From assembly GCA_937873395.1 (NCBI GenBank), contig CALMYH010000002.1, positions 1,961-65,960 on the forward strand: a DNA stretch of 64,000 nt, given 5' to 3'. Both the position numbers and the translations under genes were made by a program. The stretch is from an uncultured Burkholderiales bacterium (GTDB lineage: Bacteria > Pseudomonadota > Gammaproteobacteria > Burkholderiales > Burkholderiaceae_C). This document shows, one piece after another, positions 159 through 28,281 of the stretch. Each line of letters begins with the position of its first letter. Position 1 is the stretch's first letter. The notes under the pieces were generated by a model, which had not been told where the DNA came from, ran no database searches, and worked only from the letters and a program-made list of their open reading frames with translations.

Positions 159-2093
<1,935 letters not shown>

Positions 2094-2130
2094 GTTGTGC
2101 TCCGAAAGAGGAAGTCTGAAACTGTTCGAA

Positions 2131-2158
2131 AGATGTGGATAAGTCTGGGGATTTCAAG
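2131..2158 (-). promoter_or_regulatory. Sigma-32 (RpoH) type heat-shock promoter for dnaK
   Basis: The minus strand reads CTTGAAA, then 13 nt, then CCACATCT. The consensus is CTTGAAA-N13-15-CCCCATNT. The site is 38 nt upstream of the dnaK ATG. Confidence 0.6.
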
Positions 2159-2209
2159 TGGAGGGGCTGGGGGCACGCCGTGGATGGCACGTGTGCCGCC
2201 GGACGCCGC

Positions 2210-2782
2210 TCACTTCGGGGCCGCCACGGTCACCAGGGCCGGCCGCAGCACGCGCTCGGCGATCAGGTAGCCCTTCTGGAGCACGGCCACCACGGTGTTG
2301 GGCTCCTGGTCGGCGGGGACCATGCTGATGGCCTGGTGCTGGTGCGGGTCGAATTTTTCGCCAGCCGCCGGCGCGATGGCTACCACCTTGTGGCGGGCCA
2401 GGGCGCTCTGCAATTGCTTGAGAGTGGCCTCGGACCCCTCGCGCAGCTGCTGCACGCTGGCTTCCTGGATGGCCAGGCCGGCCTCGAAGCTGTCGAGCAC
2501 CGGCAGCAGGCTTTCGGCAAAGCTCTCGACCGCGAACTTTCGGCTCTTGGCAATTTCCTCATCGGCTCGCCGGCGGGCGTTTTCGGCCTCGGCCTTGGCC
2601 CGCAGGTACTGGTCGGCCAGATCCGCGTTCTGGGCCTTGAGCGTGGCGTTCTCGTGGCTCAACACGTTCAGTGCATCGGCTTCGGCGGCTGCGGCGGCGG
2701 CCAGGGCTTCTTCCGGGCTCACGGCCTCGGTCGCGCCCGGGTTGGCGTGTGCTGGTTGCGGGTCGTTGGGGGTCGGGCTCAT
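2210..2782 (-). CDS. grpE: Nucleotide exchange factor GrpE
   Basis: The ORF 2210..2941 contains the GrpE core ([30 protein letters not shown]). I trimmed the start to the ATG at 2782 (MSPTPNDP) because the upstream extension is low-complexity and overlaps the promoter region. Confidence 0.93.
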
Positions 2783-4909: not shown

Positions 4910-5638
4910 TCACCCGCTGAAGGACGGCCTGGTTGCCGGGGCTGATGTGTCCGGTTGTCTCAGCAGGGTGATGCGTCCATAGCCCAGCCGCACCATGCCT
5001 TCCTTTTCCAGTCGGTTGAGTTCGGCGTTGACTTTCGGTCTCGACGCGTTGAGGGACTGGGCAAACTCCTGCTGGGTCAGGGTGATGGTGATGTGTCCGA
5101 AACGGTCTGGCTGCCCGTTGAAATGGGCGAGTCGCTGCAGTCTCTGGTAGATCCGGGAGCGCAGCGAAGGCAGCAGGTCCGATTCCATCAGCTCGAACAT
5201 CTCGGCCACCCGGGTGGCCAGGCTTCGGATGATGCCCAAGGCCAGATCGGGCTCGTTGTGCAACGTCTTAATCAGGGCCTGCCGGGAGATTTCGAGTGTC
5301 TGGCCTGCTTCTTCACAGACCATGTCGGTGGGGAAGGGCGCTCCGGCCAAGGCCGATGGAACGCCATAGAGTTCGCCGGGGGTGATGCGTCGCAGAAAGA
5401 GCGAATGCCCGTCCACGCTGTTGAGCAGCACCTTGTATTGCCCGCTCAGGCACACGCTGACACTCTCCATCCGCTGGCCGCTTCGCGTCAGTGTATCGCC
5501 CGCTTTCCAGGACCTTCGCAGGCCCACCGCTTCCAGTGTGTGAACCATGGCCTGGTCCAGCACGAAACGATCCAGCGCACGCTTGTGCAGCCAGTGGGAG
5601 GACAGCACATCTTCGGGTAAACCATAGATTGGTGTCAT
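4910..5638 (-). CDS. Crp/Fnr family transcriptional regulator
   Basis: It has a cNMP-binding-like beta-barrel followed by a C-terminal HTH (TQQEFAQSLNASRPKVNAELNRLEKEGMV). It is divergent from the ABC/BMC operon. Confidence 0.85.
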   Translation of the reverse strand: MTPIYGLPEDVLSSHWLHKRALDRFVLDQAMVHTLEAVGLRRSWKAGDTLTRSGQRMESVSVCLSGQYKVLLNSVDGHSLFLRRITPGELYGVPSALAGAPFPTDMVCEEAGQTLEISRQALIKTLHNEPDLALGIIRSLATRVAEMFELMESDLLPSLRSRIYQRLQRLAHFNGQPDRFGHITITLTQQEFAQSLNASRPKVNAELNRLEKEGMVRLGYGRITLLRQPDTSAPATRPSFSG

Positions 5639-5730: not shown

Positions 5731-6726
5731 GTGATCAAGAAACTTGCAATGCGCTGGGCGTCCATGGCCACCATCACCACACTCGCAGCGGCTGCCGCAC
5801 AGGCCCAGCCAGTGGTGCGTTTCCAAGACTATCCCGGCACCGGAAACTTGCTGGTGCGCGTGGCGCAGGCGCAGGGTTTTTGTGAGCAGGCGGGCATCCG
5901 TTGCGAACTGCGCGCCATTCCCGCCGCGCCGCTGGGCATGCAGACCATGTTGTCGGGCGACATCGAAGTGTCGTTTGGTCCGGCCGAGGTGGTGGTTGCC
6001 GCCCTGGCGCGCAAGGCGCCCATCAAAGTCATCGGGGCGGGCTATGTGGACCCGGTCTTCTTTATCGCAGCGGGCATGAAGACCGAGTTGCCGACCGAGG
6101 CCGAAGGCTATCCCGGTGTGGTGAAGTCGTTCAAGGGCAAAAAAATCGGTGTCACCCAGCGCGGCTCGGGCGCCGAGTTCCAGCTGATCGACATGCTGGC
6201 CGACGCCGGGCTGACCGCCAATGACGTGACCATCGTTGCTGTCGGCGCGCCCAATACGGCGTTCCCAGCGCTGACCCAGGGGCAGGTGGATCTGATCATG
6301 ACGTTTCCCCCCGCTGACGGCATGTGCGAAGTACTCAAGGCCTGCCGCGTGGTGATCGACCCGCGCAAAGGCCAGGGCCCCAAAAGCATCCTCGACTCCC
6401 GGGGTGGCGCGGGCGCCATGGCGGTGAAAGCCGACTGGGCAGCGGCCAACCCGGCGTTGGTGGAGAGCGTTCGCAAGATGCTGGCCTTGTCAGATGCCTT
6501 TGTGTCCAACCCGGCCAATTTCGACAGAACGCTGGAGGTGCTGCGCAAGACCTTTGGCCTGCAGTTGCCCAACGCCGATCAGATCGCCGAGGTTTCGTTC
6601 CGGAATTCGATAGGCAACTTCAAGGCCCAGGGAACGGTGCCCGCCATGCAGTCGGTGGCCGACACGATGTTTCAGAACAAGCTGGTGCCCGTGCGCGTGG
6701 ACATGGCCCCCGCCGTGCTGCCTTGA
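5731..6726 (+). CDS. ABC transporter periplasmic substrate-binding protein, NMT1/SsuA/TauA-like
   Basis: A GTG start follows an AGGAGA RBS. There is a signal peptide ending AAAAQAQP. The fold pattern is typical of nitrate/sulfonate/taurine-family binding proteins. Confidence 0.8.
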   Translation: MIKKLAMRWASMATITTLAAAAAQAQPVVRFQDYPGTGNLLVRVAQAQGFCEQAGIRCELRAIPAAPLGMQTMLSGDIEVSFGPAEVVVAALARKAPIKVIGAGYVDPVFFIAAGMKTELPTEAEGYPGVVKSFKGKKIGVTQRGSGAEFQLIDMLADAGLTANDVTIVAVGAPNTAFPALTQGQVDLIMTFPPADGMCEVLKACRVVIDPRKGQGPKSILDSRGGAGAMAVKADWAAANPALVESVRKMLALSDAFVSNPANFDRTLEVLRKTFGLQLPNADQIAEVSFRNSIGNFKAQGTVPAMQSVADTMFQNKLVPVRVDMAPAVLP

Positions 6727-6765: not shown

Positions 6766-7530
6766 ATGATTGACGCCCAACGCATCGATTTGAGCTTCGA
6801 CGGCACCAACCTGGTGTTGCAAGGGGTGGACCTGCATGTCAAAGCCGGCGAGTTTGTGGCGCTGGCGGGCCCCAGTGGTTGCGGCAAGACGACCTTGCTC
6901 AACCTCTGTGCCGGGCTGGTGCCGCTGCCTGCGGGCCAGCACCTGAAGGTGGCCGGCCAGCCGCCCGCGCTGGGCAGTCACGGTGTGGCCTACATGTTGG
7001 CCAGAGACAGCCTGTTTCCCTGGCTCAGCGCACTGGATAACGCCGCCTTCGGGCTGAAGGTACGCGGCATGCCGGTGGCCCAGGCGCGCGAGCGCTCGGC
7101 CGTGATGCTCAAGCGCGTGGGTCTGGGTGGTGCTGAAAACAAGTTGCCCAAAGAGCTCTCGCACGGTATGCGCCAGCGGGTGGCGCTGGCGCGCACCTTT
7201 GCCATGCCCTCGCCACTGCTGCTCATGGACGAACCCTTTGGCGCGCTCGACGCGCAGACCAAGCTGCAGCTGCAGGACCTGTTGCTGCAACTGTGCCAGG
7301 AGGGAGAGCGCACTGTGCTGTTCGTGACCCACGACCTGTCGGAAGCGGTGGCCCTGGCCGATCGGGTGGTGGTGATGTCGTCCAGGCCCGGACGAATCGT
7401 GGCCGACGTGCCGGTGCCACTGCCGCGCCCGCGATCGATTCGCGCCCTGCAGACCAGCGACGACTTCCACCACACCTACACCCGGGTGTGGAAACATCTT
7501 GAAGAAGGATGGGTGCACCATGAAGGCTGA
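6766..7530 (+). CDS. ABC transporter ATP-binding protein (NitT/TauT family, TauB/SsuB-like)
   Basis: It carries Walker A GPSGCGKTT, signature LSHGMRQRVALAR and Walker B LLLMDEPF. Confidence 0.9.
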   Translation: MIDAQRIDLSFDGTNLVLQGVDLHVKAGEFVALAGPSGCGKTTLLNLCAGLVPLPAGQHLKVAGQPPALGSHGVAYMLARDSLFPWLSALDNAAFGLKVRGMPVAQARERSAVMLKRVGLGGAENKLPKELSHGMRQRVALARTFAMPSPLLLMDEPFGALDAQTKLQLQDLLLQLCQEGERTVLFVTHDLSEAVALADRVVVMSSRPGRIVADVPVPLPRPRSIRALQTSDDFHHTYTRVWKHLEEGWVHHEG

Positions 7531-8275
7531 GATGCTTCGCACACTGGCGCAACATGCGCTGTTCGTGACCCTGGTGCTCGGCGCCTGGGAGTGGGGTGCC
7601 AGGGCCGGCCTGATCGACCCGAGCTTTGTCGGCAGCCCGTTGGGCATTGCCCGCTTCACGCTGGAAAACTTCACCAACGCCCGGCTCTGGGGTGACCTGG
7701 TCTGGACGCTCACGGCGGTGTTTGTGTCCTTCGGCATTGGTTCCATGGCTGCCATCGCTGCCGGTCTGGCCTTTGTGACCTGGCCGCGGCTGGACGAGTT
7801 CTGTGAGCCCTACATCGCGGCGCTGAACGTGCTGCCCCGCATTGCGCTGGTGCCCCTTTTCATTCTCTGGTTCGGTCTGGGCCTGGGGTCGAAGATCGCC
7901 ATGGGCGTGTCGCTGACGTTCTTCATCGTGCTGTCCACCACCGTGGCGGGCATCCGCGGTGTCAGCCAGGACCACATCACGCTCACGCGCACGCTGGGCG
8001 CCAGCAGCCGCCAGATGTTCTTCTGGGTCACCTTGCCCGGCGCGGTGCCGGTGCTGTTCTCCGGTCTTCGCCTGGGCCTGATCTACGCCTTTCTGGGCGT
8101 GGTGGGGGCCGAGGTGATTGCATCCGAGCGCGGCCTGGGCCAGCAACTGGCCTACCTGGCCGCGATCTTCAACGTCAACGGTGTGTGGTCGCTGCTGTTC
8201 GACCTTGCAGTGATCGGCGTTCTGATCATGAAGCTCATGAGCTGGCTCGAACGTCGACTGCTGCACTGGCAATAA
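7520..8275 (+). CDS. ABC transporter permease (TauC/SsuC-like)
   Basis: It is a multi-pass membrane protein with the BPD-transporter EAA-like region. The ATG at 7520 overlaps the ATPase stop. The ORF track offers a TTG at 7499 as an alternative start. Confidence 0.85.
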   Translation: MKAEMLRTLAQHALFVTLVLGAWEWGARAGLIDPSFVGSPLGIARFTLENFTNARLWGDLVWTLTAVFVSFGIGSMAAIAAGLAFVTWPRLDEFCEPYIAALNVLPRIALVPLFILWFGLGLGSKIAMGVSLTFFIVLSTTVAGIRGVSQDHITLTRTLGASSRQMFFWVTLPGAVPVLFSGLRLGLIYAFLGVVGAEVIASERGLGQQLAYLAAIFNVNGVWSLLFDLAVIGVLIMKLMSWLERRLLHWQ

Positions 8276-8303: not shown

Positions 8304-9353
8304 ATGAAATTCCGTCACATCCAGGTGGACCCGATGACGCCCACCATCGGCGGCATGGTCAGCGGCGTGGACCTGAACAACACGCGGTCCGAAGATGTCT
8401 ACGAAGAGATCAAGCAGGCCCTGTGGCAGTACGGCGTGGTGTTCTTCCGCAAGCAGGCGCTCAAGCCCGAGGCCTATATTCGCCTGGGGAAAAACTTCGG
8501 CGAAATGGAGCAGCACGAGTTCTTCCCTCATGTCGAAGGGCATCCACAGATCCAGCTGATTTCGCACCAGGGCAACGAGGCACCCGAAACCGACCGCTGG
8601 CACACCGACGTGACCTTCCGCAAGAAGCCGAACATGGTGTCGATTCTGCGCATCACCGACCTGCCACCGGCCGGTGGCGACACCATGTGGATGCACGCCG
8701 GTGCGGCGTTCGACGCGCTCAACCCCGGCCTGCAGCAGATGCTCGAAGGCCTGCAGGCCGATCACGACCTGCCCTGGCATTTCCGCCGCATCAATGTGCA
8801 CGAGCGGCTGGCGCAGCGCGCCTCGGCCAAGAGTGGGATGCTGGTGACCGCCAATGCACAGGAGTGCAAGATGATCGAGAACACGCCCACGGTGACGCAC
8901 CCGGCGGTGATCACGCACCCCTATAACGGCCGCAAAATCCTGTTCGTCAACTCGATCTGGACCAAGCGCCTGCTGGGCATGCACATGGACCTGTCCGAAG
9001 CGCTGCTCAACATGCTCTATGAGTGGGTCAAGAAGCCTGAGTTTATGGTGCGCTTCCGCTGGGAAAAGGACTCGGTGGCCATGTGGGATAACTGCGCCAC
9101 GCAGCACTACGCGGTGTTCGACTACGCGCCGCACTACCGGGCCGGCCAGCGCATGACCTGCGGCAGCTTCGTGCCCTCCTTGCAGCCGACATCGGCCAGC
9201 AGCGCGGCTCAACCTGCGGCCCTGCGCCAGCTGATCGACACGACCCGCCTGCAGGCGGCCAGCCCACAGGAGCGGCAGGCTGTGGACGCGATCTTCAGTG
9301 CCCTCGAGGGTGTTGATCTCAATGCCGTGGCCAACGCCGCGCAGGGCCGTTGA
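8304..9353 (+). CDS. TauD/TfdA-family Fe(II)/2-oxoglutarate-dependent dioxygenase with a ~57-aa C-terminal extension
   Basis: The HxD motif is in RWHTDVTF, the GGDTMW motif is present, and the distal His is in WDNCATQHYA. An AGGAGA RBS precedes the start. The tail after ...MTCGSFVPS has no counterpart in canonical ~280-aa TauD. Confidence 0.9.
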   Translation: MKFRHIQVDPMTPTIGGMVSGVDLNNTRSEDVYEEIKQALWQYGVVFFRKQALKPEAYIRLGKNFGEMEQHEFFPHVEGHPQIQLISHQGNEAPETDRWHTDVTFRKKPNMVSILRITDLPPAGGDTMWMHAGAAFDALNPGLQQMLEGLQADHDLPWHFRRINVHERLAQRASAKSGMLVTANAQECKMIENTPTVTHPAVITHPYNGRKILFVNSIWTKRLLGMHMDLSEALLNMLYEWVKKPEFMVRFRWEKDSVAMWDNCATQHYAVFDYAPHYRAGQRMTCGSFVPSLQPTSASSAAQPAALRQLIDTTRLQAASPQERQAVDAIFSALEGVDLNAVANAAQGR

Positions 9354-9372: not shown

Positions 9373-10869
9373 ATGACCGAACTCAATCCCATTGCCGTGG
9401 GCGACAACGACCTGGCCGCCGTGCAGGAGGCGCGGCAGTTGCTGGCCCAGGCACGACCGGCGGCCGATGCGCTGGCCGGGTGGACGCCCGAGCACGCCAA
9501 GGCGGTGGCCAAGCGGGTGGCGGCCGCCCTGTTGCCGCGCGCCGAGTTCTACGCCGAGTGGGCGGTACGCGAAACCCGTATCGGCAAGGTGGCCGACAAG
9601 GTGGCCAAGAACCATTTCGCCTGCACCCTTACGCCCAGCGCCTGGGACCAGGTGGCCCTGGGCGGTGTGCGCCGCGTTGATGCGCTGCGCATCGTGGAGA
9701 TCGGCCGCCCGGCCGGTGTGGTGGTGGGGCTGTCGAACTCCACCTCGCCGGTGGCCACCATTCTGTTCAAGACCCTGATGTGCCTGATGACGCGCAACGC
9801 TCTGGTGGTGTCGCCGCACCCGGTGGCTCTGGGCTGTTGCACGGCGGTGGTGCGCGAGCTGCAGGCCGCCATCGAGACCGCAGGTGGTCCGACGAATGCG
9901 GTGCAGATACTGACCCGGCCGACGGTCGAGGCCACGGGTGCCCTCATGCGCGACACCCGCACCGACGTGATCCTCGCGACGGGCGGCACGCCCATGGTAC
10001 GCGCCGCCTACGGCTCGGGCAACCCGGCCATCGGGGTGGGTTCGGGCAACGTACCGATCTATGTGGACACCAGCGCCGACTTGAACGATGCGGCGCAGAA
10101 GGTGGTGCTGGCCAAGAACTTCGACCACGGCAGTCCTTGCTCGGCGCCGTCGGTTCTGATGCTGCATGCCGGTATCGCGCAAGCCATGCTGCAAGCGCTG
10201 ACCGCTGCCGGTGCGCATGTGTGCAGCGAGCTCGAGGCCCGGCAGATCCAGGATTACGCTTTTCCGGGTGGCAGGTTCAACGCCAAGGTGGTGGGACGAC
10301 CGGCACACGAAATTGCCAGCGCTGCAGGGGTGACGGTGAGCGCGACCTGCGAGGCGCTTGTGTGCCCCATGGCCCGACCGCAGGCGGGCCACCCCTTGCT
10401 GCGCGAGAAGCTCTCGCCCATTTTGGGCTGTGTGGTGGTGCCGGACATGGCGCAGGCCGTGGACGTGGCCCGCCTGATGCTGCAGAACAGCGGGGGTGGC
10501 CACACCTCGGGCATCTACACCGCCGACGCCACCCAGGCCGTGGCCTGGGGCGCTGCGCTCGATTACTACCGCGTGGTCGTCAACGGCAACACGGTGCTCG
10601 ACAGCACCGGCGACAACACCGGACTGCCCTATACCTTCACCATCGGCACCGGCTACGCCGGCAAGAGTTCGGTGGACTGCAATGTCGGCCCTGAGCTGCT
10701 GGTGAACTGGAAACGGGTGGCCTTTCCGCTGCCCGGTGGCTGGACCGGCGCCATGGCCTCGGGGGCGGCGACTGCCGCTGCCGGTGCCGCTGAGCCGGCC
10801 ATCCTCACACCCGAGCTCTCCGCCATGGTCCTGCGCATCGTGCAGGAAGAACTCGAACACATCCGCTGA
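9373..10869 (+). CDS. CoA-acylating aldehyde dehydrogenase (EutE/PduP-like) with a C-terminal amphipathic tail
   Basis: It has the ALDH fold, with the catalytic Cys context NFDHGSPCSAPSV resembling acetylating ALDHs. The start is set at MTELNP. The C-terminus is a Gly/Ala linker followed by LTPELSAMVLRIVQEELEHIR. Confidence 0.85.
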   Translation: MTELNPIAVGDNDLAAVQEARQLLAQARPAADALAGWTPEHAKAVAKRVAAALLPRAEFYAEWAVRETRIGKVADKVAKNHFACTLTPSAWDQVALGGVRRVDALRIVEIGRPAGVVVGLSNSTSPVATILFKTLMCLMTRNALVVSPHPVALGCCTAVVRELQAAIETAGGPTNAVQILTRPTVEATGALMRDTRTDVILATGGTPMVRAAYGSGNPAIGVGSGNVPIYVDTSADLNDAAQKVVLAKNFDHGSPCSAPSVLMLHAGIAQAMLQALTAAGAHVCSELEARQIQDYAFPGGRFNAKVVGRPAHEIASAAGVTVSATCEALVCPMARPQAGHPLLREKLSPILGCVVVPDMAQAVDVARLMLQNSGGGHTSGIYTADATQAVAWGAALDYYRVVVNGNTVLDSTGDNTGLPYTFTIGTGYAGKSSVDCNVGPELLVNWKRVAFPLPGGWTGAMASGAATAAAGAAEPAILTPELSAMVLRIVQEELEHIR

Positions 10870-10878
10870 AAGCCTGTC

Positions 10879-11493
10879 ATGTCCACTTTGCGCAGCTACA
10901 TCTTTCTGGACCGCTTGCAGCCACAACTGATGTGTTTGCTGGGGTCGACCGCTCGCGGCTTCTTGCCGCGCCACAACGACGCGGCCATGGTCATTGAAGT
11001 GGCACCCGGCATGGACATCGAGTGGCTGACCGACGTGGCCCTGAAGCACGACAACGTCAAACCCGGCAACCTGGTGGTGGAGCGGCAGTTCGGCTACCTG
11101 GAGTTTCACGGCCAGTCCTCGTCATCGGTGAAGTCGGCCGGCGCAGCGGTGCTGGAGGCCATGGGCGTGAGCGAAAAAAGCGCACTCAAGCCCGAGATCC
11201 TGGCGTCCAAGGTGATCGACCGGGTGGACGGCTACCACGCCTTCCTGATCAACCGCAGCAAGTCCGGCAGCATGCTCTTACCCGGCGAGTCGCTCTACAT
11301 CATGGAGATGACCACATCGTCGTACGCGCTGCTGGTGGCCAACGAAGCCGAAAAGGCCGCCAACGTCAAACTCATCGACTGCCGCTTCATGGGGCCTGCC
11401 GGACGTCTGTACCTCTCGGGGGATGCCTCGGACGTGCGCGCCGCCGCTGCGGTGGCCGAGGCTGTGATCCGCGACGCGAGAGGTGGCGTATGA
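10879..11493 (+). CDS. BMC-T shell protein (tandem BMC domains), paralog 1
   Basis: There are two BMC-like repeats. The first contains DVALKHDNVKPG...FGYLEFHGQSSSSVKSAGAAV. The second contains ANEAEKAANVKLID...GRLYLSGDASDVRAAAAVAEA. Confidence 0.85.
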   Translation: MSTLRSYIFLDRLQPQLMCLLGSTARGFLPRHNDAAMVIEVAPGMDIEWLTDVALKHDNVKPGNLVVERQFGYLEFHGQSSSSVKSAGAAVLEAMGVSEKSALKPEILASKVIDRVDGYHAFLINRSKSGSMLLPGESLYIMEMTTSSYALLVANEAEKAANVKLIDCRFMGPAGRLYLSGDASDVRAAAAVAEAVIRDARGGV

Positions 11494-12413
11494 GCGCCGA
11501 GGCCTTGCGCGAGCAGATCCGGGCTCAGGTGCGTACCGCTGTGGCGGCTCACACCGCCCCTGACCAGGGCGCCGCTGTGGCGGCCCTGATGCAGCGCTTT
11601 GAAGCCGGTTACGCCACCGCCAACGCCGAGGCCATCGTGGCCTGCTTTGCGCCCGATGTGGTTTGGGCCCTGCCCGACGCGCGCGTGCTCAACGGGCGCG
11701 CGGCCTGCCTGGCGTTCCTGAAGGAACGCTTTGCCAGCCCCGCAGGCCCGCAATTTGCCGACTCGCGCATGCATGTGCTGGGCCGGACCGTGGTGCAAAA
11801 CTACAAGGTCAGCCTGCCCCTGCCCGGCGGCCAGACGGTCACGCTGGACGGCGCCGACGTGTACCAGATCCGTGACGGGCTGATTGCGCGCAAAGACGCG
11901 TACTGGAAACAGATCGGTGCGGGCAAGCCGGGAACAGCCGCCGCACCGGCGGCCCCGGGCGCGGCATCCGTCGGCGTGGTCGTGCCCTTGCGCGTGGGCA
12001 CAGCCGCTGGCATCCAGGCGCTGAGCGAGCTGTACAAGCGGCTGGCCGCGAGCCCTGCGCTGCTGCAGGCGGCCCAGAACGGTGTGTTGCGCTTTGACTT
12101 GCGCGTGGACGAAGGACATGCGCTGGGCACGTCGGCCATGGCCGCCACCACCGCCATCGGCCCGGCTGCCTGCTGTGAGTCGTGCAAGGCAGGCAAATCC
12201 TGTGATTGCAAAGGCGACCACTGCGATCTGCATGAACACAAGACCGCCGAGGCCGTGCCCGAGCTTCACGGCGTGATCGGCGAGAAATTGCTCAGAACCC
12301 TGCCGCCAGGCGTGAAAACCGTTCGGCTGCATCCCAAGGCGGTCATGACGCCCTTGGGCAAGGATGCACTGCGCAAGCGCGGCATCACCATTGACCGAGG
12401 AGCCCAGCCATGA
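11490..12413 (+). CDS. Uncharacterised BMC-locus protein: N-terminal SnoaL/NTF2-like domain, Pro/Ala linker, Cys/His-rich cluster and a short C-terminal domain
   Basis: ATGA overlaps occur at both ends (11490/11493 and 12410/12413). The NTF2-like segment includes FAPDVVW...DVYQIRDGLIARKDAYW. The cluster reads CCESCKAGKSCDCKGDHCDLHEH. The start lies inside the longer ORF 11022..12413. Confidence 0.7.
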   Translation: MSAEALREQIRAQVRTAVAAHTAPDQGAAVAALMQRFEAGYATANAEAIVACFAPDVVWALPDARVLNGRAACLAFLKERFASPAGPQFADSRMHVLGRTVVQNYKVSLPLPGGQTVTLDGADVYQIRDGLIARKDAYWKQIGAGKPGTAAAPAAPGAASVGVVVPLRVGTAAGIQALSELYKRLAASPALLQAAQNGVLRFDLRVDEGHALGTSAMAATTAIGPAACCESCKAGKSCDCKGDHCDLHEHKTAEAVPELHGVIGEKLLRTLPPGVKTVRLHPKAVMTPLGKDALRKRGITIDRGAQP

Positions 12414-12679
12414 AGACCGGAACCGTGATTGGCCGCATCGTGGCCAGCAAACGCCTGCCCGAGCTGCCTGCGGGTGCCTTGCTGGAGGTGCAGCTGGACT
12501 ACCCCAAAGATGTGGTGGTTTGCTACGACCCATTGGGCTGCGGCATCGGTGAGCGCGTAATGATCACCATCGGCGCGCCCGCGGTCTGGTGGTTTGCGCC
12601 CGCACAGCAGCGCGTGGTGGCCGATGCGCTGATCATCGCTTCGCTCGACAACTACGACACGCCCACGCCCATGCGCTAA
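12410..12679 (+). CDS. BMC-P vertex protein (EutN/CcmL family pentamer)
   Basis: It is 89 aa and begins MKTGTVIGRIVASKRLPELPAGALLEVQ, which fits the EutN/CcmL beta-barrel pattern. Confidence 0.85.
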   Translation: MKTGTVIGRIVASKRLPELPAGALLEVQLDYPKDVVVCYDPLGCGIGERVMITIGAPAVWWFAPAQQRVVADALIIASLDNYDTPTPMR

Positions 12680-12745: not shown

Positions 12746-13018
12746 ATGTCACAAGCCATCGGAATGATCGAGACCAAAGGTTATGTCAGCGCCTTCGCTG
12801 CAGCGGACGCCATGGTCAAAGCCGCCAACGTCAACATCGTGGGCAAGAAGGAAGTGGGCGGAGGCCTGGTGGCCATCATCGTCTCGGGCGATGTGGGCGC
12901 GGTCAAGGCTGCCACAGAGGCGGGGGCGGAAGCGGCCGGGGCGATTGGCGAAGTGGTGTCGTGCCACGTCATTCCCCGTCCGCATGCCGACGTGCAGAAG
13001 GCCTTTGACGGCAAGTGA
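12746..13018 (+). CDS. BMC-H hexameric shell protein (PduA/EutM/CcmK type)
   Basis: It has a canonical single BMC domain: [26 protein letters not shown]...[23 protein letters not shown]...HVIPRPH. The RBS AGGAGA is strong. Confidence 0.95.
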
Positions 13019-13056: not shown

Positions 13057-13722
13057 ATGGCCACACGCAAACTCCCTGCAGCGTCGGCGCGTCCGGCGGC
13101 CGAGCTGCGGGTCTATCTGACGTTGACCGATCTGCAGGCCCAGTTTTCCTCGTGGATGAGTTCTCCGCTGGGTGCGCGCGGTTATGTCGCGATGCAGGGT
13201 ACCCACTCGCTGTTGGTGGAGATCGCCCCCGGGCTTTCGATCCAGCGGGTGATCGACCTGGCGCTCAAGGCCGAGCCCACCCTGGAGCCTGGCATTCTGG
13301 CGGTGGAGCGGCAGTTTGGCATTCTGGAGCTGCACAGCCAGGACCGCGCTGCGCTGGAGCGCGGGGGACAGGCCATTCTGGACTGGCTGGGTGCCCGGCC
13401 CCAGGACCAGCTGCGCCCGCAACTGCTCTACAGCGACATTCTGGACAACGTGACCGACCAGCACGCGGTGCTGATGAACCGAACCCGCCAGGCCAACATG
13501 GTGCTGCCCGGACAGAACCTGTTGCTGATGGAGGTGGCGCCGGCCCTGTTTGGTGCCCACATGGCCAACGAGGCCGAGAAGGTGGCACCCGATGTGACGC
13601 TGGTGGAGTGCAGCATGATCGGTGCCAGCGGTCGGATGTACCTCAGCGGCAATATGGCCTCGCTGGAAAAGGCCAAGGCCCACGTGGAGCAGTTGCTGCA
13701 GCAGATCCCGGGGCGGGGATAG
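13057..13722 (+). CDS. BMC-T shell protein (tandem BMC domains), paralog 2
   Basis: It has the same architecture as 10879..11493 (VERQFGILELH, ANEAEKVAPDVTLVE...GRMYLSGNMASLEKAKAHVE). It carries an extra ~16-aa N-terminal extension. Confidence 0.85.
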   Translation: MATRKLPAASARPAAELRVYLTLTDLQAQFSSWMSSPLGARGYVAMQGTHSLLVEIAPGLSIQRVIDLALKAEPTLEPGILAVERQFGILELHSQDRAALERGGQAILDWLGARPQDQLRPQLLYSDILDNVTDQHAVLMNRTRQANMVLPGQNLLLMEVAPALFGAHMANEAEKVAPDVTLVECSMIGASGRMYLSGNMASLEKAKAHVEQLLQQIPGRG

Positions 13723-13728
13723 CGTCCC

Positions 13729-14523
13729 TTGAGTGTGCACGCCGCCGCGTTGCCGTGGTCCATGCCTTTATTGTGCACGGCACTGGCGGTGTCGCTGGGT
13801 GCCGGGTTTGTGCGCGGCTTTGCCGGTTTTGGCTACTCGGCCCTGGTGGTTCTGGGTCTGTCTCTGCTGGTCTCGCCCGCCACCGTGGTGCCGGCGGTGC
13901 TGATGCTGGAGGTGATTGCCAGCGCCGGACTGCTTCGAGGCAGCTGGCCGCATGTCGATCGCAGCTGGCTGCGGGCGCTGTCGCTGGGCACCCTGATGGT
14001 GACCCCGCTGGGCATGGTCTGCCTGGCCTGGCTGCCCGAAGGCGTGGCGCGGCTGGGGGTAGGCTGCACGGTCCTGTTGTGTGCTTGCTTTCTTCGTGCC
14101 GCAGGTCACCGTTCCCCGTCCGACAGCGCCGCCTTGCGGGCCGTTGCCGGCGTCGGGGCGGGCTGGCTCAACGGCCTGGCGTCCAGCGGAGGTGTGTGGG
14201 CCGCACTGTGGATGACCGGCGCGGGCGTTCCAGCGGCAGCGATGCGCGCGACCATGGACGTCTTTCTGTTCTCGGGCGGTGTTTACGCCCTGCTGTGGGC
14301 CGCCGCCCTGTCGCTCGGGCAGGACAGCGATCGCCTGCTGAGTTCGGCCACCCTGGGATGGGTCGGTCTGCTGCTGCCCACCATGTGGCTGGGCATGGTC
14401 TGGGGCCGGCGTTGCGTGGCGGCTGTCAACCCCGGCCGGCTGCGCCATCTGGTGCTGAACCTGCTGATCGCGATGGCCAGTGTGGGCGTGTTGCGGGCGC
14501 TGCTGGGGCTGCAGAAGCTGTGA
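13729..14523 (+). CDS. TauE/SafE (TSUP) family sulfite/anion exporter
   Basis: It is a polytopic membrane protein with the glycine-rich motif GAGFVRGFAGFGYS typical of TSUP/TauE. The start codon is uncertain: TTG at 13729, GTG at 13735 or ATG at 13762. Confidence 0.78.
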   Translation: MSVHAAALPWSMPLLCTALAVSLGAGFVRGFAGFGYSALVVLGLSLLVSPATVVPAVLMLEVIASAGLLRGSWPHVDRSWLRALSLGTLMVTPLGMVCLAWLPEGVARLGVGCTVLLCACFLRAAGHRSPSDSAALRAVAGVGAGWLNGLASSGGVWAALWMTGAGVPAAAMRATMDVFLFSGGVYALLWAAALSLGQDSDRLLSSATLGWVGLLLPTMWLGMVWGRRCVAAVNPGRLRHLVLNLLIAMASVGVLRALLGLQKL

Positions 14524-14549: not shown

Positions 14550-16274
14550 TCAGCCGCGGTCGAGCGTGTCCTGCATCATAGACAGGCGCATGTCGAACTC
14601 GGGCCAGACCCAGCGCCAGAAGCTGGTCTGAGCGGTTTGCCAGCGCGGAGCAACGGCGCCGCCGGCAGCGCCGATGCGCGCCCATGCCCATGCCATGAGC
14701 AGCATCGCCACGGCGCGCAGGAAGTCGTCGGCCAGCCAGTGCGGCAGGTCCGCGGGAGCGTTCTTGGCGGTGGCGCGGGGCAGCAGTCTGGCTTGAAGAA
14801 AGGCGATGAACCGGGTGAGTTCGGTCTTTGCCCGCATGGCTTGTTCGTCATTGCCCAGCTCGGTGCCGAGGTCGGCCAGCAGTTGGCGCAGAGCGGCGCC
14901 GCCGTCGGGCAGGGTCTTGCGCAGCAGCAGGTCGATGGCCTGGATCTCGTTGGTGCCCTCGTAGATCATGGCCACGCGCGCGTCGCGAACCACCTGCTCG
15001 ATGCCCCACTCGCGCACATAGCCGTGGCCACCGAACACCTGCAGGCAGGCGCTGGCGCCATGGAAAGCCTGATCGGTCCAGGCGGCCTTGAGCACGGGCG
15101 TGACCAGCGCGCACCAGCGGCCGGCGGTTTCGCGCCGTTGTGCGTCTGGGTGGTGCTTGATGATGTCCAGCTCGACTGCGGTGCGGTACGCGACCACGCG
15201 GCCAGCGTCGATCCAGGCGCGCTGGGTATCGAGGATGCGGCGCATGGCCGGATGCGCCTCGATGAGATCCGCTTCGCCCGCTTTGGCGTTGCCACCGGGG
15301 GCGCGCATCTGGCGCCGTTCTTTGGCGTAGGTGTCTGCCTTCTGCCAGGCGGCTTCGAGCAGGCCGATGCCCTGCAGGCCCACATGCAGGCGGGCGGCGT
15401 TCATCATCACGAACATCGCGTTCAGGCCTTTGCCCGGCTCGCCGACGATCCAGCCCGGTGCCTCGTCGAAGCGCATGACGCAGGTGGGGCTGCCATGCAG
15501 GCCCATCTTTTCCTCGATGCGTTCGCAGAACACAGCGCTGCGCGTGCTGTCTTCATAAAACTTGGGCACCAGGAACAGCGACAGGCCCTTGGGTCCGGGC
15601 GGACTGTCGGGCAGGCGGGCCAGCACCAGGTGCACGATGTTGTCGGTCAGGTCGTGTTCACCACCGGAGATGAAGATCTTGGTGCCGGACAGCGCGTAGC
15701 GGCCGTCGGCCTGCGGAACCGCCTTGGTGCGGCACAGGCCGAGGTCGGAGCCGGCGTGTGGCTCGGTCAGGCACATGGTGGCCAGCCATTCGCCGGTGGC
15801 GACCTTCTCCAGGTAGGTGGCCTTCAGTTCGTCGGACGCGTGGTGCTTGATGCACTCGTAGGCGCCGTGCAGCAGGCCGGGCGCCATGGTCCAGCCGTGA
15901 TTGGCAGCGCTGAGCATCTCGTACAGCATGGCCTCCAGCACGGCGGGCAGGCCCTGGCCACCGTCTTCCGTGGCACAGGCCAGCGAAGGCCAGCCCGCCT
16001 GCCAGAAGGCTTGATAGGCGTCACGGAAGCCCGGTGGCATGGTGACAGCGCCGCCCCTGAGATGCGCACCGATTTCGTCACCGTCTCGGTTGAGCGGGGC
16101 GACCACTTCGGCCACGAACTTGCCCGACTCCTCCAGCACCTGCTGCATCAGATCGGCGTCGACCTCGGCCCCGTGACCCGAATACTGGGGCAGGGTCTGC
16201 AACTGGGTCGGTGCCTGCAGTGCCTGCTGCAGGATGAAGAACATGTCGTCGGTGCGGGGCTGAAAGTGGTTCAC
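14550..16274 (-). CDS. Long-type acyl-CoA dehydrogenase
   Basis: ACAD motifs are present (CLTEPHAGSDLG, IFISGGEHD, GGHGYVREWGIEQVVRDARVAMIYEGTNEIQ). I chose the GTG at 16274, with the ATG at 16244 as an alternative. The 902-aa ORF is an artefactual upstream read-through across neighbouring genes. Confidence 0.9.
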   Translation of the reverse strand: MNHFQPRTDDMFFILQQALQAPTQLQTLPQYSGHGAEVDADLMQQVLEESGKFVAEVVAPLNRDGDEIGAHLRGGAVTMPPGFRDAYQAFWQAGWPSLACATEDGGQGLPAVLEAMLYEMLSAANHGWTMAPGLLHGAYECIKHHASDELKATYLEKVATGEWLATMCLTEPHAGSDLGLCRTKAVPQADGRYALSGTKIFISGGEHDLTDNIVHLVLARLPDSPPGPKGLSLFLVPKFYEDSTRSAVFCERIEEKMGLHGSPTCVMRFDEAPGWIVGEPGKGLNAMFVMMNAARLHVGLQGIGLLEAAWQKADTYAKERRQMRAPGGNAKAGEADLIEAHPAMRRILDTQRAWIDAGRVVAYRTAVELDIIKHHPDAQRRETAGRWCALVTPVLKAAWTDQAFHGASACLQVFGGHGYVREWGIEQVVRDARVAMIYEGTNEIQAIDLLLRKTLPDGGAALRQLLADLGTELGNDEQAMRAKTELTRFIAFLQARLLPRATAKNAPADLPHWLADDFLRAVAMLLMAWAWARIGAAGGAVAPRWQTAQTSFWRWVWPEFDMRLSMMQDTLDRG

Positions 16275-16303
16275 GGCGGGAGCTTCCGAAAGCGGAGGAG
16301 GGG

Positions 16304-16984
16304 TCAGCGAGGCTTGGCCTCGGCGGCCTTGTCGGGTGAACCCTCCAGGCCGGCCAGCAGCGCCTGGCTGTTGCCGGGGATGACCATCTGGAACTTGCTG
16401 TCGACGGTGGTGTAGTCGAAGTAGCCCATGCGCGCGATGGGCCGGATCTTGAGGACGTCGACCAGGCCGTTGCTGTCGATGTATTGGTCGTCGATGTGGA
16501 TCGCCACCACACGACCGAATACCACGTCCACCGTGCCCATGGGCGGGGTGCCCGGAAAGCGCAGGGTGTTGAGGTATTCGCACTCGAACTGGATGGGTGA
16601 TCCCTTGACGCGCTTGGGCCGAACCCGCCGGCTGTCGAGCTTTTCCAGTCCGGCGCGTTCGAACTCGTCGACGCCGAAGGGCAGTTCTTCGGCGCTGATG
16701 TTGACCGCTTCGCGCAGCTCCCAGGTGGCCATGTTCCAGACGAACTGGCCCATCTGCTCGGCGTTGCGCACCGAGTCCTTGCGCTCCCCCTGGGTGGTCT
16801 GGTTCGCGCTGAACATGACGATCGGCGGGTCGAAGGTCACGTTCTGGAACTGGCTGTAGGGCGCGAGGTTGTCTCGGCCCTGCGCGTCCACGGTGGAGAT
16901 CCAGCCGATGGGGCGAGGCACCACGCACGACTTGAACGGGTCGTGCGGCAGTCCATGGGGTGTCTTGCCGGGTTCGTAGTACAT
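16304..16984 (-). CDS. Flavin reductase-like (FMN-binding split-barrel) protein
   Basis: The segment FKSCVVPRPIGWISTVDAQGRDNLAPYSQF is a typical flavin reductase domain. The start is at MYYEPG. Confidence 0.85.
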   Translation of the reverse strand: MYYEPGKTPHGLPHDPFKSCVVPRPIGWISTVDAQGRDNLAPYSQFQNVTFDPPIVMFSANQTTQGERKDSVRNAEQMGQFVWNMATWELREAVNISAEELPFGVDEFERAGLEKLDSRRVRPKRVKGSPIQFECEYLNTLRFPGTPPMGTVDVVFGRVVAIHIDDQYIDSNGLVDVLKIRPIARMGYFDYTTVDSKFQMVIPGNSQALLAGLEGSPDKAAEAKPR

Positions 16985-19257: not shown

Positions 19258-20505
19258 TCAGGCGTTCATGTTCTCGATCAGCAGGGCGATGCCCTGGCCA
19301 CCGCCCACACAGGCGCTGGAGATGCCGTACTTCAGCCCGCTGCGCTGCAGCTCGCGCGCCAGCGTGAGGGTCAGGCGCACGCCGGTGGCGGCCAGCGGGT
19401 GGCCCAGGGCGATGGCGCCGCCGTTGACGTTGAGCTTGCCGATGTCCATGCCCAGGTCCTTGGCGACCGACAGGGTCTGTGTGCCCTGGGCTTCGTTGAC
19501 CTCGAAGCGGCCGATGTCGTCGAGCTTGAGGCCGGTACGCTCCAGCAGCAGGCGGATGGCGGGCGCCGGTCCGATGCCCATGATCTCGGGCGGCACGCCC
19601 ACCACGGCGGCGGCCACCACGCGAGCCAGCGGTGCCTTGCCCTGTGCCTTGGCGTAGGCGCCCGAACTCACCACACAGGCCGCTGCGGCATCCACCAATG
19701 CCGAGCTGTTGCCACCGGTCTGGACACCGCCCTCGAACACCGGCTTGAGCTTGGCCAGGATCTCGACCGGGGAGATGCGCGGGTGGGTGTCGGTGGCCAG
19801 CTCGGTCACCTTGCCCTGCAGCCGGATGCCGCGCGCCTTGTAACCATCGATCTCGAATTTTTCGGTGACCAGCGGTGCGATCTCGCCGGCCAGGAAGCCG
19901 CTTTCCTGCGCGGCCACCGCCTTGGCAAAGGAGGCCGAGGCGAACTCGTCGACCGACTCGCGGGTGATGCCGTACTTCTTCGCCAGGTTCTCGGCGGTCT
20001 GGATCATGTTGATGCCGGCCGCCGGGTCCTTCAGGGCTTCCCACATGTAGTCCTTGAAGCCCACCGGTGCACCCAGCTTGAAGCCGGTGCGGTGGTCGAA
20101 GGCCGCAATCGGGTTGCGCGTCATGTTCTCGGTGCCCACCACCAGCGCCGCGTCGCACAGGCCGCCGCTGATGTGCTCGCCGGCCTGGCGGAACAGCTCG
20201 AAGCCGGTGCCACAGATGCGCTGCGCCATCAGCGCTGGCACGTTCACCGGCACGCCGGCGTACAGGCCGATGTGGCGCGGCAGGAAGAACTGGTCGAAGT
20301 CGCCGGGCGCCATGTTGCCAGTGACGACCGAGCCGACTTCTTCGGGGCGCGTGCCGGTGCGCGCCAGCGCTTCGCGTGCCACCTTGATGCCCAGATCGGT
20401 GGGCGAGATGTGCCCGAGGGCACCGCAGTAGTCGACCATGGGGGTGCGCACACCGCCGAGGATGACGACATCATCGAATGCGTTGAAGAAGCCTTTGCTG
20501 GCCAT
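19258..20505 (-). CDS. Thiolase (acetyl-CoA C-acyltransferase)
   Basis: Thiolase signatures are present (QRICGTGF, NVNGGAIALGHPLAATG, CVGGGQG). The start is at MASKGFFNAF. Confidence 0.9.
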   Translation of the reverse strand: MASKGFFNAFDDVVILGGVRTPMVDYCGALGHISPTDLGIKVAREALARTGTRPEEVGSVVTGNMAPGDFDQFFLPRHIGLYAGVPVNVPALMAQRICGTGFELFRQAGEHISGGLCDAALVVGTENMTRNPIAAFDHRTGFKLGAPVGFKDYMWEALKDPAAGINMIQTAENLAKKYGITRESVDEFASASFAKAVAAQESGFLAGEIAPLVTEKFEIDGYKARGIRLQGKVTELATDTHPRISPVEILAKLKPVFEGGVQTGGNSSALVDAAAACVVSSGAYAKAQGKAPLARVVAAAVVGVPPEIMGIGPAPAIRLLLERTGLKLDDIGRFEVNEAQGTQTLSVAKDLGMDIGKLNVNGGAIALGHPLAATGVRLTLTLARELQRSGLKYGISSACVGGGQGIALLIENMNA

Positions 20506-20516
20506 GGTGATGCCTT

Positions 20517-26224: not shown

Positions 26225-26252
26225 GAGGGGGGTCTCCACGGGTGGATGGTTA

Positions 26253-26906: not shown

Positions 26907-26975
26907 AAGAGCCTGATGGCGGCTCGTCCGTCCTGTCAAGGACATTTGTGGTTCACCCATTCACCGGAGACTCCG

Positions 26976-28007: not shown

Positions 28008-28281
28008 TGCCGGTCGGGTGCGGCTGCGGGAACGTCTCCGTGGCCGCGTCTCATCGCAAGCTGCCGGTCGCCACGCAGCTCAGCGAGGCTTGATCTCCTG
28101 TTTTTCTCCAATTGGTGAGTAGGCTTATCAAGTTCGCCGGAATAAATCTGAGTCCATGCCGTTTTGCTATAGCTGAAAGTGCCTTGTGCGTCTTTGCCTG
28201 GGCCGTGTCCGGACGCACAGTGACGGCGGGCTTCGTTCGAAGCCGCTACCGCTTGCGCACCCCCAACTGAAGGAGACTCTC

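Follow-up and report, generated by a model that had tools for sequence, protein, structure and literature searches.

Encapsulation peptides (EPs) of microcompartment (BMC) enzymes are defined by a terminal amphipathic helix, a poorly conserved disordered linker and a BMC context (PMC8217296; PMC12339742), and they also mediate cargo–cargo bundles (PMC12339742). RMM1/AAUM1, the aminoacetone/1-amino-2-propanol utilisation BMC of Mycobacterium smegmatis, has a shell with a single BMC-H, a single BMC-P and two different BMC-T(dp) proteins (PMC8217296, supplementary file 6). The catalogue of BMC loci assigns the shell proteins of Limnohabitans, Ramlibacter and Polaromonas to RMM1 as well (PMC8217296). 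The isethionate sulfite-lyase BMC of Bilophila wadsworthia is described as enclosing a C–S cleavage that yields sulfite and an aldehyde (PMC8667426). A literature search returned no paper connecting TauD with BMCs, and neither TauD nor PF02668 occurs in the text supplementary files of the catalogue.

A TauD-Family Dioxygenase Encoded among Transporter and Shell Genes

The window, a stretch of 64,000 nucleotides from an uncultured Burkholderiales bacterium (contig CALMYH010000002.1), contains an operon in which genes of a sulfonate-type importer, a dioxygenase and BMC shell proteins follow one another. Its features, together with the matches on which their naming is based, are the following:

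4910..5638, minus strand: Crp/FNR-family regulator, divergent from the operon (Pfam cNMP_binding and HTH_Crp_2)
5731..6726, plus strand: periplasmic substrate-binding protein, SsuA/TauA-like, NMT1 family (Pfam NMT1, NMT1_2)
6766..7530, plus strand: ABC transporter ATPase, best match of the taurine/sulfonate type (Pfam ABC_tran)
7499..8275, plus strand: ABC transporter permease, TauC/SsuC-like (Pfam BPD_transp_1)
8304..9170, plus strand: TauD/TfdA-family Fe(II)/2-oxoglutarate dioxygenase core, aa 1–289 (Pfam TauD, aa 8–284)
9171..9221, plus strand: low-complexity Ala/Pro/Ser-rich linker, aa 290–306 (composition, length variation, low pLDDT)
9222..9350, plus strand: conserved C-terminal 43-aa module, aa 307–349 (no indels, AF2 helices, exclusive to one clade)
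9373..10869, plus strand: acylating (CoA-dependent) aldehyde dehydrogenase, AldDH (Pfam Aldedh; NCBIfam EutE, AdhE and SauS-type acylating dehydrogenases)
10879..11493, plus strand: BMC-T(dp) shell protein 1, CcmP/CsoS1D-like tandem BMC (Pfam BMC; NCBIfam CcmP, E 1e-64)
11490..12413, plus strand: conserved protein X with an inserted SnoaL-like domain (only Pfam SnoaL_2, aa 35–134)
12410..12679, plus strand: BMC-P pentamer (vertex) protein (Pfam EutN_CcmL)
12746..13018, plus strand: BMC-H hexamer shell protein (Pfam BMC, E 1e-26; NCBIfam EutM-like)
13057..13722, plus strand: BMC-T(dp) shell protein 2 (NCBIfam CcmP, E 3e-51; homologues with Pfam CsoS1D_N)
13729..14523, plus strand: TauE/SafE-family sulfite exporter, a membrane protein and the last gene of the operon (PF01925 TauE)

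The NCBIfam matches of the transporter subunits all stayed under the respective cut-offs: SsuA_fam as the best for the substrate-binding protein, the taurine ABC ATP-binding subunit as the best for the ATPase, and SaoP, TauC and SsuC for the permease. The match of the exporter to PF01925 is significant (E 2e-20, 73.9 bits vs a cut-off of 32.6). A Crp/FNR-family regulator gene also lies upstream in the related loci L086–L090 and L092, and the homologues of the first BMC-T(dp) protein are named rmmT1 in the published catalogue.

Two neighbours of the dioxygenase carry terminal helices of their own. AldDH ends in a linker followed by an amphipathic helix, LTPELSAMVLRIVQEELEHIR (at about 10804–10866), whose hydrophobic moment of 0.45 is reached by 4% of shuffled sequences and whose ..hxxhhxEEL.. 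motif was found in 11 of the 11 related loci examined. In protein X, the amphipathic helix is N-terminal (MSAEALREQIRAQVRTAV); the protein also has a stretch rich in Cys and, C-terminally, a ..AVMTPLGKDALRKRGITI.. motif. A counterpart of it lies between BMC-T1 and BMC-P in all 10 related loci with enough sequence to cover that region; the homologue search placed protein X in a small unannotated family and, at the sensitivity of that search, gave no link to actinobacterial RMM1. The AldDH linker with its helix and the N-terminal helix of protein X were present in every locus examined, and such extensions follow the usual pattern of metabolosome cargo.

The dioxygenase itself is encoded by the ORF 8304..9353 on the plus strand, the product of which has 349 aa. 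Pfam TauD (PF02668) covers aa 8–284 (E 9e-57, 193.4 bits vs a cut-off of 27), and in phmmer the E. coli TauD protein (283 aa) aligns with residues 5–286. The AF2 model (mean pLDDT 91) has E. coli TauD as its best Foldseek match (TM 0.93, normalised to the target; 36% identity), and the fold is common to the window enzyme and to E. coli TauD and AtsK, an alkyl-sulfate dioxygenase. The Fe triad H100-x-D102...H268 is complete, in agreement with the first-pass annotation, which had described the HxD motif and the distal His as intact, and the 2OG/sulfonate residues T127, R279 and R283 are kept. In the alignment, H100, D102, H268, T127 and R279 correspond to H99, D101, H255, T126 and R266 of E. coli TauD, and these five residues do not change across the homologue sets A1 and A3. 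The Fe triad, the 2OG ligands and the sulfonate-binding Arg and His are thus shared with E. coli TauD and AtsK. The window enzyme differs from E. coli TauD in the positions Y73 (F74), N95 (T96) and S158 (H159), the residues that hold the amine of taurine in the 1OS7 structure. It scored 254.8 bits with the taurine dioxygenase equivalog NF007104 of NCBIfam, under the cut-off of 313. By sequence, the enzyme is assigned to the TauD/TfdA family (PF02668) but not to taurine dioxygenase proper.

The Tail Consists of a Flexible Linker and a Conserved 43-aa Module

The tail spans aa 290–349, about 60 aa beyond the catalytic domain, which ends at aa 284 according to Pfam and at aa 286 in the alignment with E. 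coli TauD. The extension noticed in the first-pass annotation at 9180–9350 (aa 293–349) therefore lies past the end of the core. A Foldseek search found no counterpart of the tail in any solved TauD-family structure, in line with the earlier statement that canonical TauD lacks it; the linker and the module are additions of the window enzyme relative to E. coli TauD and AtsK.

The linker had been described as rich in Ser, Ala and Pro, and its composition (A 19%, P 13%, S 10%) bears this out. In type-1 homologues the linker measures 15–60 aa; it cannot be aligned between subclades, and it forms the stretch of minimum pLDDT in the AF2 model, with residues 299–302 below 50.

The module behaves quite differently from the linker. 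It occurs without indels in at least 44 homologues, the cores of which are 42–91% identical to the window enzyme, and it follows the consensus hhDxxRhxxxSxxERxAVxAhFxAhxxhDLxxhAxxAxxx, in which A20, V21, A23, F25, A27 and L33 are near-invariant. Three helices are predicted in it, at about 9213–9257, 9264–9308 and 9318–9347; the full-length AF2 model places the tail helices at residues 304–308, 313–318, 321–335 and 339–348. The pLDDT of the module is 78–92 in that model, and over both models its helices reach 78–95. Folded by itself, the module again gives three helices with a pLDDT of 85.5, and therefore the confidence of its prediction is independent of the core. A Foldseek search of the PDB with the module model, which is too small for this purpose, gave no matches, and a Pfam scan of the tail sequences (E<=10) returned nothing except one match to Sigma70_r4 under the threshold. 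This match occurred in a single homologue, and the assignment of the tail to that family was rejected.

The conservation of the tail exceeds chance. It shows a one-sided helical periodicity, with 3% of shuffles attaining the conservation moment of helix 2 and 4% that of helix 3. The hydrophobic moments are less distinctive: that of helix 2 is 0.39, a value equalled by 8% of shuffles, and that of helix 3 is 0.13, whereas the bona fide EP of PduP has a moment of 0.23, which is also low. The tail helices are thus comparable to some genuine EPs in this respect, but not significantly above shuffled sequences. It should be noted that the first-pass annotation had seen two amphipathic segments. The helical prediction held, on what appears to be a disordered tether, but the helices are three in number, including a further C-terminal one (NAVANAAQGR) that had been missed, and their amphipathicity is only moderate. 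The architecture it had proposed, a flexible linker followed by one short amphipathic helix, had to be given up in favour of a linker and a conserved three-helix module of fixed length.

Two subclades carry a partial module, consisting either of helix 3 only (..ELDLDQVVAYARRR) or of helices 1 and 2 only. As these subclades too are linked to BMC genes, no single element of the module is universal. An ORF artefact or read-through was considered for the tail and rejected, since its conservation at the protein level spans Beta- and Alphaproteobacteria.

The Tail Co-Occurs with BMC Genes

The distribution of the module was examined with a profile HMM. Among all ORFs of 89 loci and of the window, it matched only the C-termini of TauD proteins, and among 1.84 billion representative proteins it gave 10 matches, every one a TauD protein or a TauD fragment. 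The module is exclusive to one TauD clade; being on no other protein in either set, it is not a tag shared by the proteins of the locus.

The gene directly 3' of the tailed TauD encodes the acylating AldDH in 13 of 13 distinct loci (the window, L001–L006, L008, L018, L086, L087, L088/89 and L091). Shell genes are visible in 12 of these; the contig of the remaining one, L001, stops within the AldDH gene. Meanwhile, seven relatives inside the tailed clade (P0016, P0018, P0023, P0039, P0053, P0056 and P0090; 42–72% identity) have no tail, and neither AldDH (0/7) nor shell genes (0/7) were found beside them, the contig of P0039 stopping about 1 kb past TauD. Several of the seven retain the upstream Crp and ABC transporter genes. 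The neighbour-joining tree places six of them at several positions within the tailed clade, which implies that the tail and the BMC genes were lost together repeatedly. No shell genes were seen among 70 more distant TauD loci.

The tail therefore co-occurs strictly with BMC genes among the loci examined, the counts being drawn from phylogenetically correlated loci. A tail common in TauD homologues from genomes lacking BMC genes would have spoken against the first-pass annotation, but no such pattern was seen among the loci examined: the in-clade relatives without BMC genes have no tail. The proposal made there, that the dioxygenase is BMC cargo, is strongly supported by the comparison of genomes, in which every BMC-linked TauD examined bears a tail.

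Proposed Role of the Tail and Alternative Explanations

We consider it probable that the tail serves, in dependence on the BMC, as a domain for cargo targeting or assembly and that the TauD-family dioxygenase is the aldehyde-generating signature enzyme of the microcompartment. The cargo-targeting role is well supported by the comparison of loci, and the dioxygenase is likely the cargo enzyme of a hitherto undescribed microcompartment that would degrade sulfonates aerobically. From the co-occurrence, the module may bind the shell. We infer encapsulation, what the module binds, which substrate is used and which way the metabolites flow as follows. The ABC system would bring in an organosulfonate, which the dioxygenase, enclosed in a shell of one BMC-H, one BMC-P and two BMC-T(dp) proteins, would split with O2 and 2-oxoglutarate into sulfite and an aldehyde. 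The co-encapsulated acylating AldDH would convert the aldehyde to acyl-CoA, and the sulfite would leave via TauE. The flexible linker would give the 43-aa module the reach to bind its partner, for which the inner shell surface, the C-terminal helix of AldDH, the N-terminal helix of protein X and other copies of the module are candidates. The model for such a module would be EPs, which co-aggregate cargo and tether it to the shell.

The same observations could be read as an improbable variant, in which the module is a docking domain for AldDH or protein X that serves aldehyde channelling and makes no contact with the shell, encapsulation being driven by the helices of AldDH and protein X. Two properties of the module together suggest a specific protein partner, its restriction to TauD and a conservation much above that of ordinary EPs; moreover, AldDH and protein X bear the more canonical single amphipathic helices, and cargo–cargo bundling by EPs is known (PMC12339742). 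A docking domain fits less well with the variation of the TauD tail, which may lack helices 1 and 2 or helix 3, whereas the AldDH helix keeps much the same motif. As TauD would remain BMC cargo, this reading falls under the main explanation as one of its forms. A tail that is intrinsic to the enzyme, acting in oligomerisation, stability or regulation with no targeting role and merely co-inherited with the BMC operon, is quite unlikely in our view. TauD enzymes are oligomeric, the module is a compact helical structure of high AF2 confidence, and its small conserved residues A20, A23 and A27 suggest tight helix packing. However, the presence of the core makes no difference to the pLDDT of the module, its tether is disordered with a four-fold range of lengths, and solved TauD-family enzymes function without a tail. 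The tail was lost repeatedly, exactly alongside the BMC genes, while the enzyme and the transporter were kept.

We give hardly any credence to the possibility that a helix-turn-helix nucleic-acid-binding motif resembling sigma-70 region 4 survives in the module as a remnant or is mimicked by it. The pattern LSxxERxAVxxhF..LDLxxIA resembles that fold in its first two helices, and the tail of one homologue matched Sigma70_r4 (E 0.08, 12.9 bits), but this score lies under the cut-off of 24.1 and the tail of the window enzyme gave no such match. The module also stops where the recognition helix should start, Foldseek finds nothing for it, and a Crp-type regulator is already encoded separately.

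Returning to the cargo-targeting domain, the chances appear evenly balanced that the module represents a new class of BMC cargo-targeting domains, folded and enzyme-specific, unlike simple amphipathic EPs, and that it defines an undescribed aerobic "sulfonate metabolosome". If so, Fe(II)/2OG dioxygenases, which need O2, iron and 2-oxoglutarate inside the shell, would be a new class of metabolosome signature enzymes, and aerobic organosulfonate desulfonation a new BMC substrate class, with the shell confining both sulfite and a reactive aldehyde. Proteobacterial loci listed today as RMM1/AAUM1 would then have the wrong function assigned to them, and a function could be offered for the "RMM1" loci of abundant freshwater Comamonadaceae (Limnohabitans, Rhodoferax, Ramlibacter, Variovorax, Hydrogenophaga) and of some Alphaproteobacteria. 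It would also raise the question of how 2OG, succinate, O2 and sulfite pass through an RMM1-type shell with two BMC-T(dp) pores. For engineered shells, a conserved module of fixed length might be a more specific and possibly orthogonal tag than generic amphipathic EPs, and the natural relatives without tail and BMC genes are ready-made controls.

Comparison with Known Systems

The tail resembles the EPs of metabolosome enzymes (N-terminal in PduP, PduD and EutC, C-terminal in CcmN) in being an extension at the enzyme terminus, outside the catalytic domain, on a linker that is flexible and little conserved. It is likewise predicted to be helical and may share a conserved apolar face, and its locus contains shell genes in an operon whose AldDH also bears an extension. 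It departs from the canonical EP, which is one short helix some 18 residues long (15–20 being expected), in its fixed 43 aa and three predicted helices. Furthermore, canonical EPs are conserved in their hydrophobic pattern only, whereas the sequence of the module is strongly conserved, and the module occurs on a single enzyme family and has no sequence similarity to other proteins. Judged by its sequence features, the tail has the position and the context of an EP without being a canonical one.

The shell inventory of the window is identical to that of RMM1/AAUM1. In both systems AldDH occurs without PTAC or alcohol dehydrogenase, which holds for the window operon and for L086–L091 alike. Meanwhile, no (S)-1-amino-2-propanol kinase, class-III aminotransferase/phospholyase, short-chain dehydrogenase, amino-acid permease or GntR regulator was found among the ORFs scanned at window positions 159–29328, and these RMM1 amino-alcohol pathway enzymes are also absent from the Pfam lists for the flanks of L086–L089 and L091. 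The amino-alcohol enzymes are replaced in the window by the TauD-family dioxygenase, the sulfonate-type ABC importer and the TauE sulfite exporter, and the regulator is of the Crp type instead of GntR.

With the Bilophila wadsworthia BMC, the window locus would share an enclosed C–S cleavage giving sulfite and an aldehyde, its own version being proposed from the genes. The Bilophila system works anaerobically, with a glycyl-radical enzyme in a GRM-type shell, whereas the window encodes a dioxygenase dependent on O2 and 2OG together with a shell of the RMM1 type.

Organization of the dioxygenase operon

The tailed TauD-family dioxygenase is encoded together with bacterial microcompartment (BMC) shell proteins as follows:

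4910-5638 (-), Crp-type regulator, divergent from the operon
5731-6726 (+), SsuA/TauA-like binding protein
6766-7530 (+), ABC ATPase
7499-8275 (+), ABC permease
8304-9353 (+), tailed dioxygenase
9373-10869 (+), acylating aldehyde dehydrogenase (AldDH)
10879-11493 (+), BMC-T(dp), first
11490-12413 (+), conserved protein X with an inserted SnoaL domain
12410-12679 (+), BMC-P
12746-13018 (+), BMC-H
13057-13722 (+), BMC-T(dp), second
13729-14523 (+), TauE/SafE-family sulfite exporter (PF01925, E 2e-20), final operon gene

An importer of sulfonate type together with a sulfite exporter fits a desulfonation pathway, and the exporter supports sulfite release by the putative encapsulated reaction.

Elsewhere in the window, DnaK/Hsp70 is encoded at 159-2093 (-) (E 4e-266). 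The overlapping ORF 249-2270 (+) matched Pfam PF10712, 'NAD-specific glutamate dehydrogenase' (E 2e-220), a family that corresponds to the antisense frame of hsp70, so this ORF is almost certainly spurious. The region 24219-26239 (-) encodes an oxygenase of the Rieske/VanA type (25184-26239) and a reductase that has Fer2 and NAD-binding domains (24219-25850). Two TRAP binding proteins of the DctP type are encoded beside them, at 26916-28007 and at 28186-29328. This group looks like an aromatic O-demethylase-like cluster with no relation to the tailed dioxygenase.

Catalytic core and C-terminal tail of the dioxygenase

The ORF 8304..9353 (+) encodes a protein of 349 aa, in which Pfam matched the TauD/TfdA domain (PF02668) at aa 8-284 (E 9e-57) and phmmer aligned E. 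coli TauD (283 aa) to residues 5-286. The AlphaFold2 model built from 60 homologues (mean pLDDT 91) had E. coli and Pseudomonas TauD as its best structural matches in Foldseek (36% identity; target-normalised TM 0.91-0.93). The residues H100, D102, and H268 of the iron triad, the 2OG ligands T127 and R279, and the sulfonate-binding R283 and H71 are all kept. The first-pass annotation had described an intact HxD motif and distal His, followed at 9180..9350 by an extension that TauD ordinarily lacks. This description was confirmed: the extension (aa 293-349) lies beyond both alignments, and Foldseek found no counterpart of it in any solved relative (all ~250-300 aa).

The comparison of homologues from a 5.8-billion-protein collection showed that the tail consists of a linker and a module. 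The linker is Ser/Ala/Pro-rich, as proposed earlier (A 19%, P 13%, S 10%), is 15 to 60 aa long in the 44 sequences with the full module, and is the least confident part of the model (residues 299-302, pLDDT <50). The module spans 43 aa up to the C-terminus without a single indel (consensus hhDxxRhxxxSxxERxAVxAhFxAhxxhDLxxhAxxAxxx). Its residues D6, R9, E17, A20, V21, A23, F25, A27, and L33 are nearly invariant, although the catalytic cores are down to 42-50% identity with the window's enzyme.

In the full-length model, tail helices were predicted at 304-308, 313-318, 321-335, and 339-348 (block pLDDT 90, 92, 81, and 78, respectively). The module folded alone gave three helices (7-12, 15-29, and 33-42) and a pLDDT of 85.5. 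As this is similarly confident, the confidence of the module is independent of the core, and the pLDDT values with and without the core gave no sign of the module docking back onto it in the models. The first-pass annotation had listed two amphipathic-helix segments; a further C-terminal helix is predicted, and the classical hydrophobic moments are only moderate. Conservation along the helices is periodic at 100 degrees, and just 3% (helix 2) and 4% (helix 3) of shuffles were equally periodic, which indicates a probable conserved interaction face.

When every ORF of at least 40 aa from the 64-kb window and from 89 other loci was searched with the module HMM, the matches were confined to TauD C-termini. 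Among 1.84 billion representative proteins, the module profile had only 10 matches at E<=0.001: seven inspected sequences were TauD or TauD fragments, one was a full-length tailed TauD found already among the homologues, and two aligned just over short or repeated partial stretches. The Pfam search of the tails gave a single sub-threshold match (Sigma70_r4, in one homologue), and the module gave no Foldseek match. The module is an invention of one clade and not a shared domain.

Three tail architectures were found on BMC-linked TauDs: the full module, the linker with helix 3, and helices 1 and 2. The BMC-linked helix-3-only subclade (proteins P0020, P0022, P0024-P0028, P0030, and P0031; loci L087-L089) carries a linker and ..ELDLDQVVAYARRR, which aligns residue for residue with module helix 3 at an equal distance from the C-terminus. 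The lineage of proteins P0112 and P0114 (locus L091) has helices 1 and 2 only (..FLDGSKVERMDIQQQTAIKQLFASV); P0112, the member checked, is BMC-linked, with a TRAP transporter replacing the ABC system. As these partial tails are still BMC-linked, no single tail element is universal, which argues for an interaction that would be modular and multivalent rather than one fixed epitope.

Association of the tail with BMC genes

The scan of 185,579 species genomes yielded 80 TauD loci. AldDH lies immediately downstream in all eight tailed loci (L001-L006, L008, and L018), whose hosts are Limnohabitans, Rhodoferax, Comamonas, other Burkholderiales, Chachezhania, and one alphaproteobacterial MAG. Shell genes are visible in seven of them; the sequence of L001 stops inside AldDH. 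Queries with tail, AldDH, SnoaL, and shell sequences matched nothing in 70 of the 72 other loci; of the remaining two, one gave a SnoaL match only and the other a weak AldDH match only. Exact-sequence look-ups provided a Ramlibacter locus (L086) and three further BMC-linked loci.

AldDH and shell genes are lacking in all seven tail-less relatives that fall within the tailed clade (P0016, P0018, P0023, P0039, P0053, P0056, and P0090, with 72, 70, 68, 62, 60, 52, and 49% identity to the window's enzyme, respectively), several of which still have the same Crp and ABC transporter genes ahead of TauD. Six of the seven were included in a neighbour-joining tree built from the catalytic cores and branched from the tailed clade in several different places, which implies that the tail and the BMC were lost together, repeatedly. 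This comparison gives the strongest evidence that the function of the tail depends on the microcompartment. A tail common in TauDs of BMC-less genomes, named earlier as the observation against the cargo reading, was not found: the tail occurs together with the AldDH and shell genes, and the seven tail-less relatives are without both.

Other putative cargo proteins

AldDH carries, at its C-terminus, a variable linker and an amphipathic helix with the pattern ..hxxhhxEEL.. (11/11 loci examined); for the window's helix, LTPELSAMVLRIVQEELEHIR, 4% of shuffles reach the hydrophobic moment of 0.45. In every case (window, L002-L006, L008, L018, L086-L088, and L091), protein X is encoded between the first BMC-T and BMC-P. 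It starts with an amphipathic helix and has a conserved central domain, a variable stretch rich in Cys (in the window, CCESCKAGKSCDCKGDHCDLHEH), and the motif ..AV(I/M)TPLA(R/K)D..G(I/V).I.. towards its C-terminus. The SnoaL-like insertion is present in Limnohabitans-type loci and L018 and missing elsewhere, where the protein is 143-176 aa long. The family has few members (24 matches in a homologue search) and no annotation, and X is possibly a scaffold or adaptor. The terminal helices of AldDH and X look like canonical encapsulation peptides (EPs), and the locus follows the metabolosome rule of terminal extensions on core enzymes.

Substrate and proposed pathway

The substrate may be a sulfonate other than taurine, because the window's enzyme scores 254.8 against the NCBIfam taurine dioxygenase family, under the cut-off of 313, and Y73, N95, and S158 of E. 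coli TauD, which contact the amino group of taurine, are replaced (Y73->F74, N95->T96, S158->H159). In loci L088 and L089, genes for acyl-CoA dehydrogenase, thiolase, and hydratase/3-hydroxyacyl-CoA dehydrogenase come immediately after the shell genes, in the same orientation (9372-13928 in L088). In the window, beta-oxidation genes adjoin the operon downstream:

14550-16400 (-), acyl-CoA dehydrogenase
19258-20667 (-), thiolase
20517-22373 (-), acyl-CoA synthetase
22425-23210 (-), enoyl-CoA hydratase

These genes hint, with low confidence, at an aliphatic sulfonate giving fatty acyl-CoA, and there are hints of further oxidation of the acyl-CoA product.

In the pathway considered most likely, for which we infer encapsulation, binding partner, and substrate alike, an organosulfonate would be imported and cleaved to sulfite and an aldehyde by the dioxygenase in the shell. 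AldDH would trap the aldehyde as acyl-CoA and TauE would export the sulfite, while the tail would tether the dioxygenase to the shell and/or other cargo during assembly. The tail-less relatives in nature are usable controls.

Comparison with known microcompartments

EPs are terminal amphipathic helices of ~15-20 residues with a poorly conserved linker, found in a BMC context (PMC8217296, PMC12339742). The dioxygenase tail shares their position, linker, and BMC context and is predicted to be helical, with moderate amphipathicity, but it is not a single short helix and its conservation is far above that of a typical EP. Of the original proposal that an EP makes the dioxygenase a BMC cargo, the cargo status is well supported by comparative genomics, whereas the EP architecture is only approximate.

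The literature searched in full text yielded no paper linking TauD to BMCs, and TauD, taurine, and PF02668 are not mentioned in the text or searched supplements of the 2021 BMC catalogue. A link to sulfonates is known for a single described BMC, the isethionate lyase system of Bilophila, which is anaerobic and of the glycyl-radical type (PMC8667426). The shell inventory of the window matches RMM1/AAUM1, the aminoacetone/1-amino-2-propanol utilisation type, and the 2021 catalogue places shell proteins of Limnohabitans, Ramlibacter, and Polaromonas in RMM1 (PMC8217296). Unlike in AAUM, its defining amino-alcohol enzymes are absent from the dioxygenase operon and the related loci. The locus would represent a metabolosome whose shell is of the RMM1 type, with a new signature enzyme and a folded, unusual targeting module.
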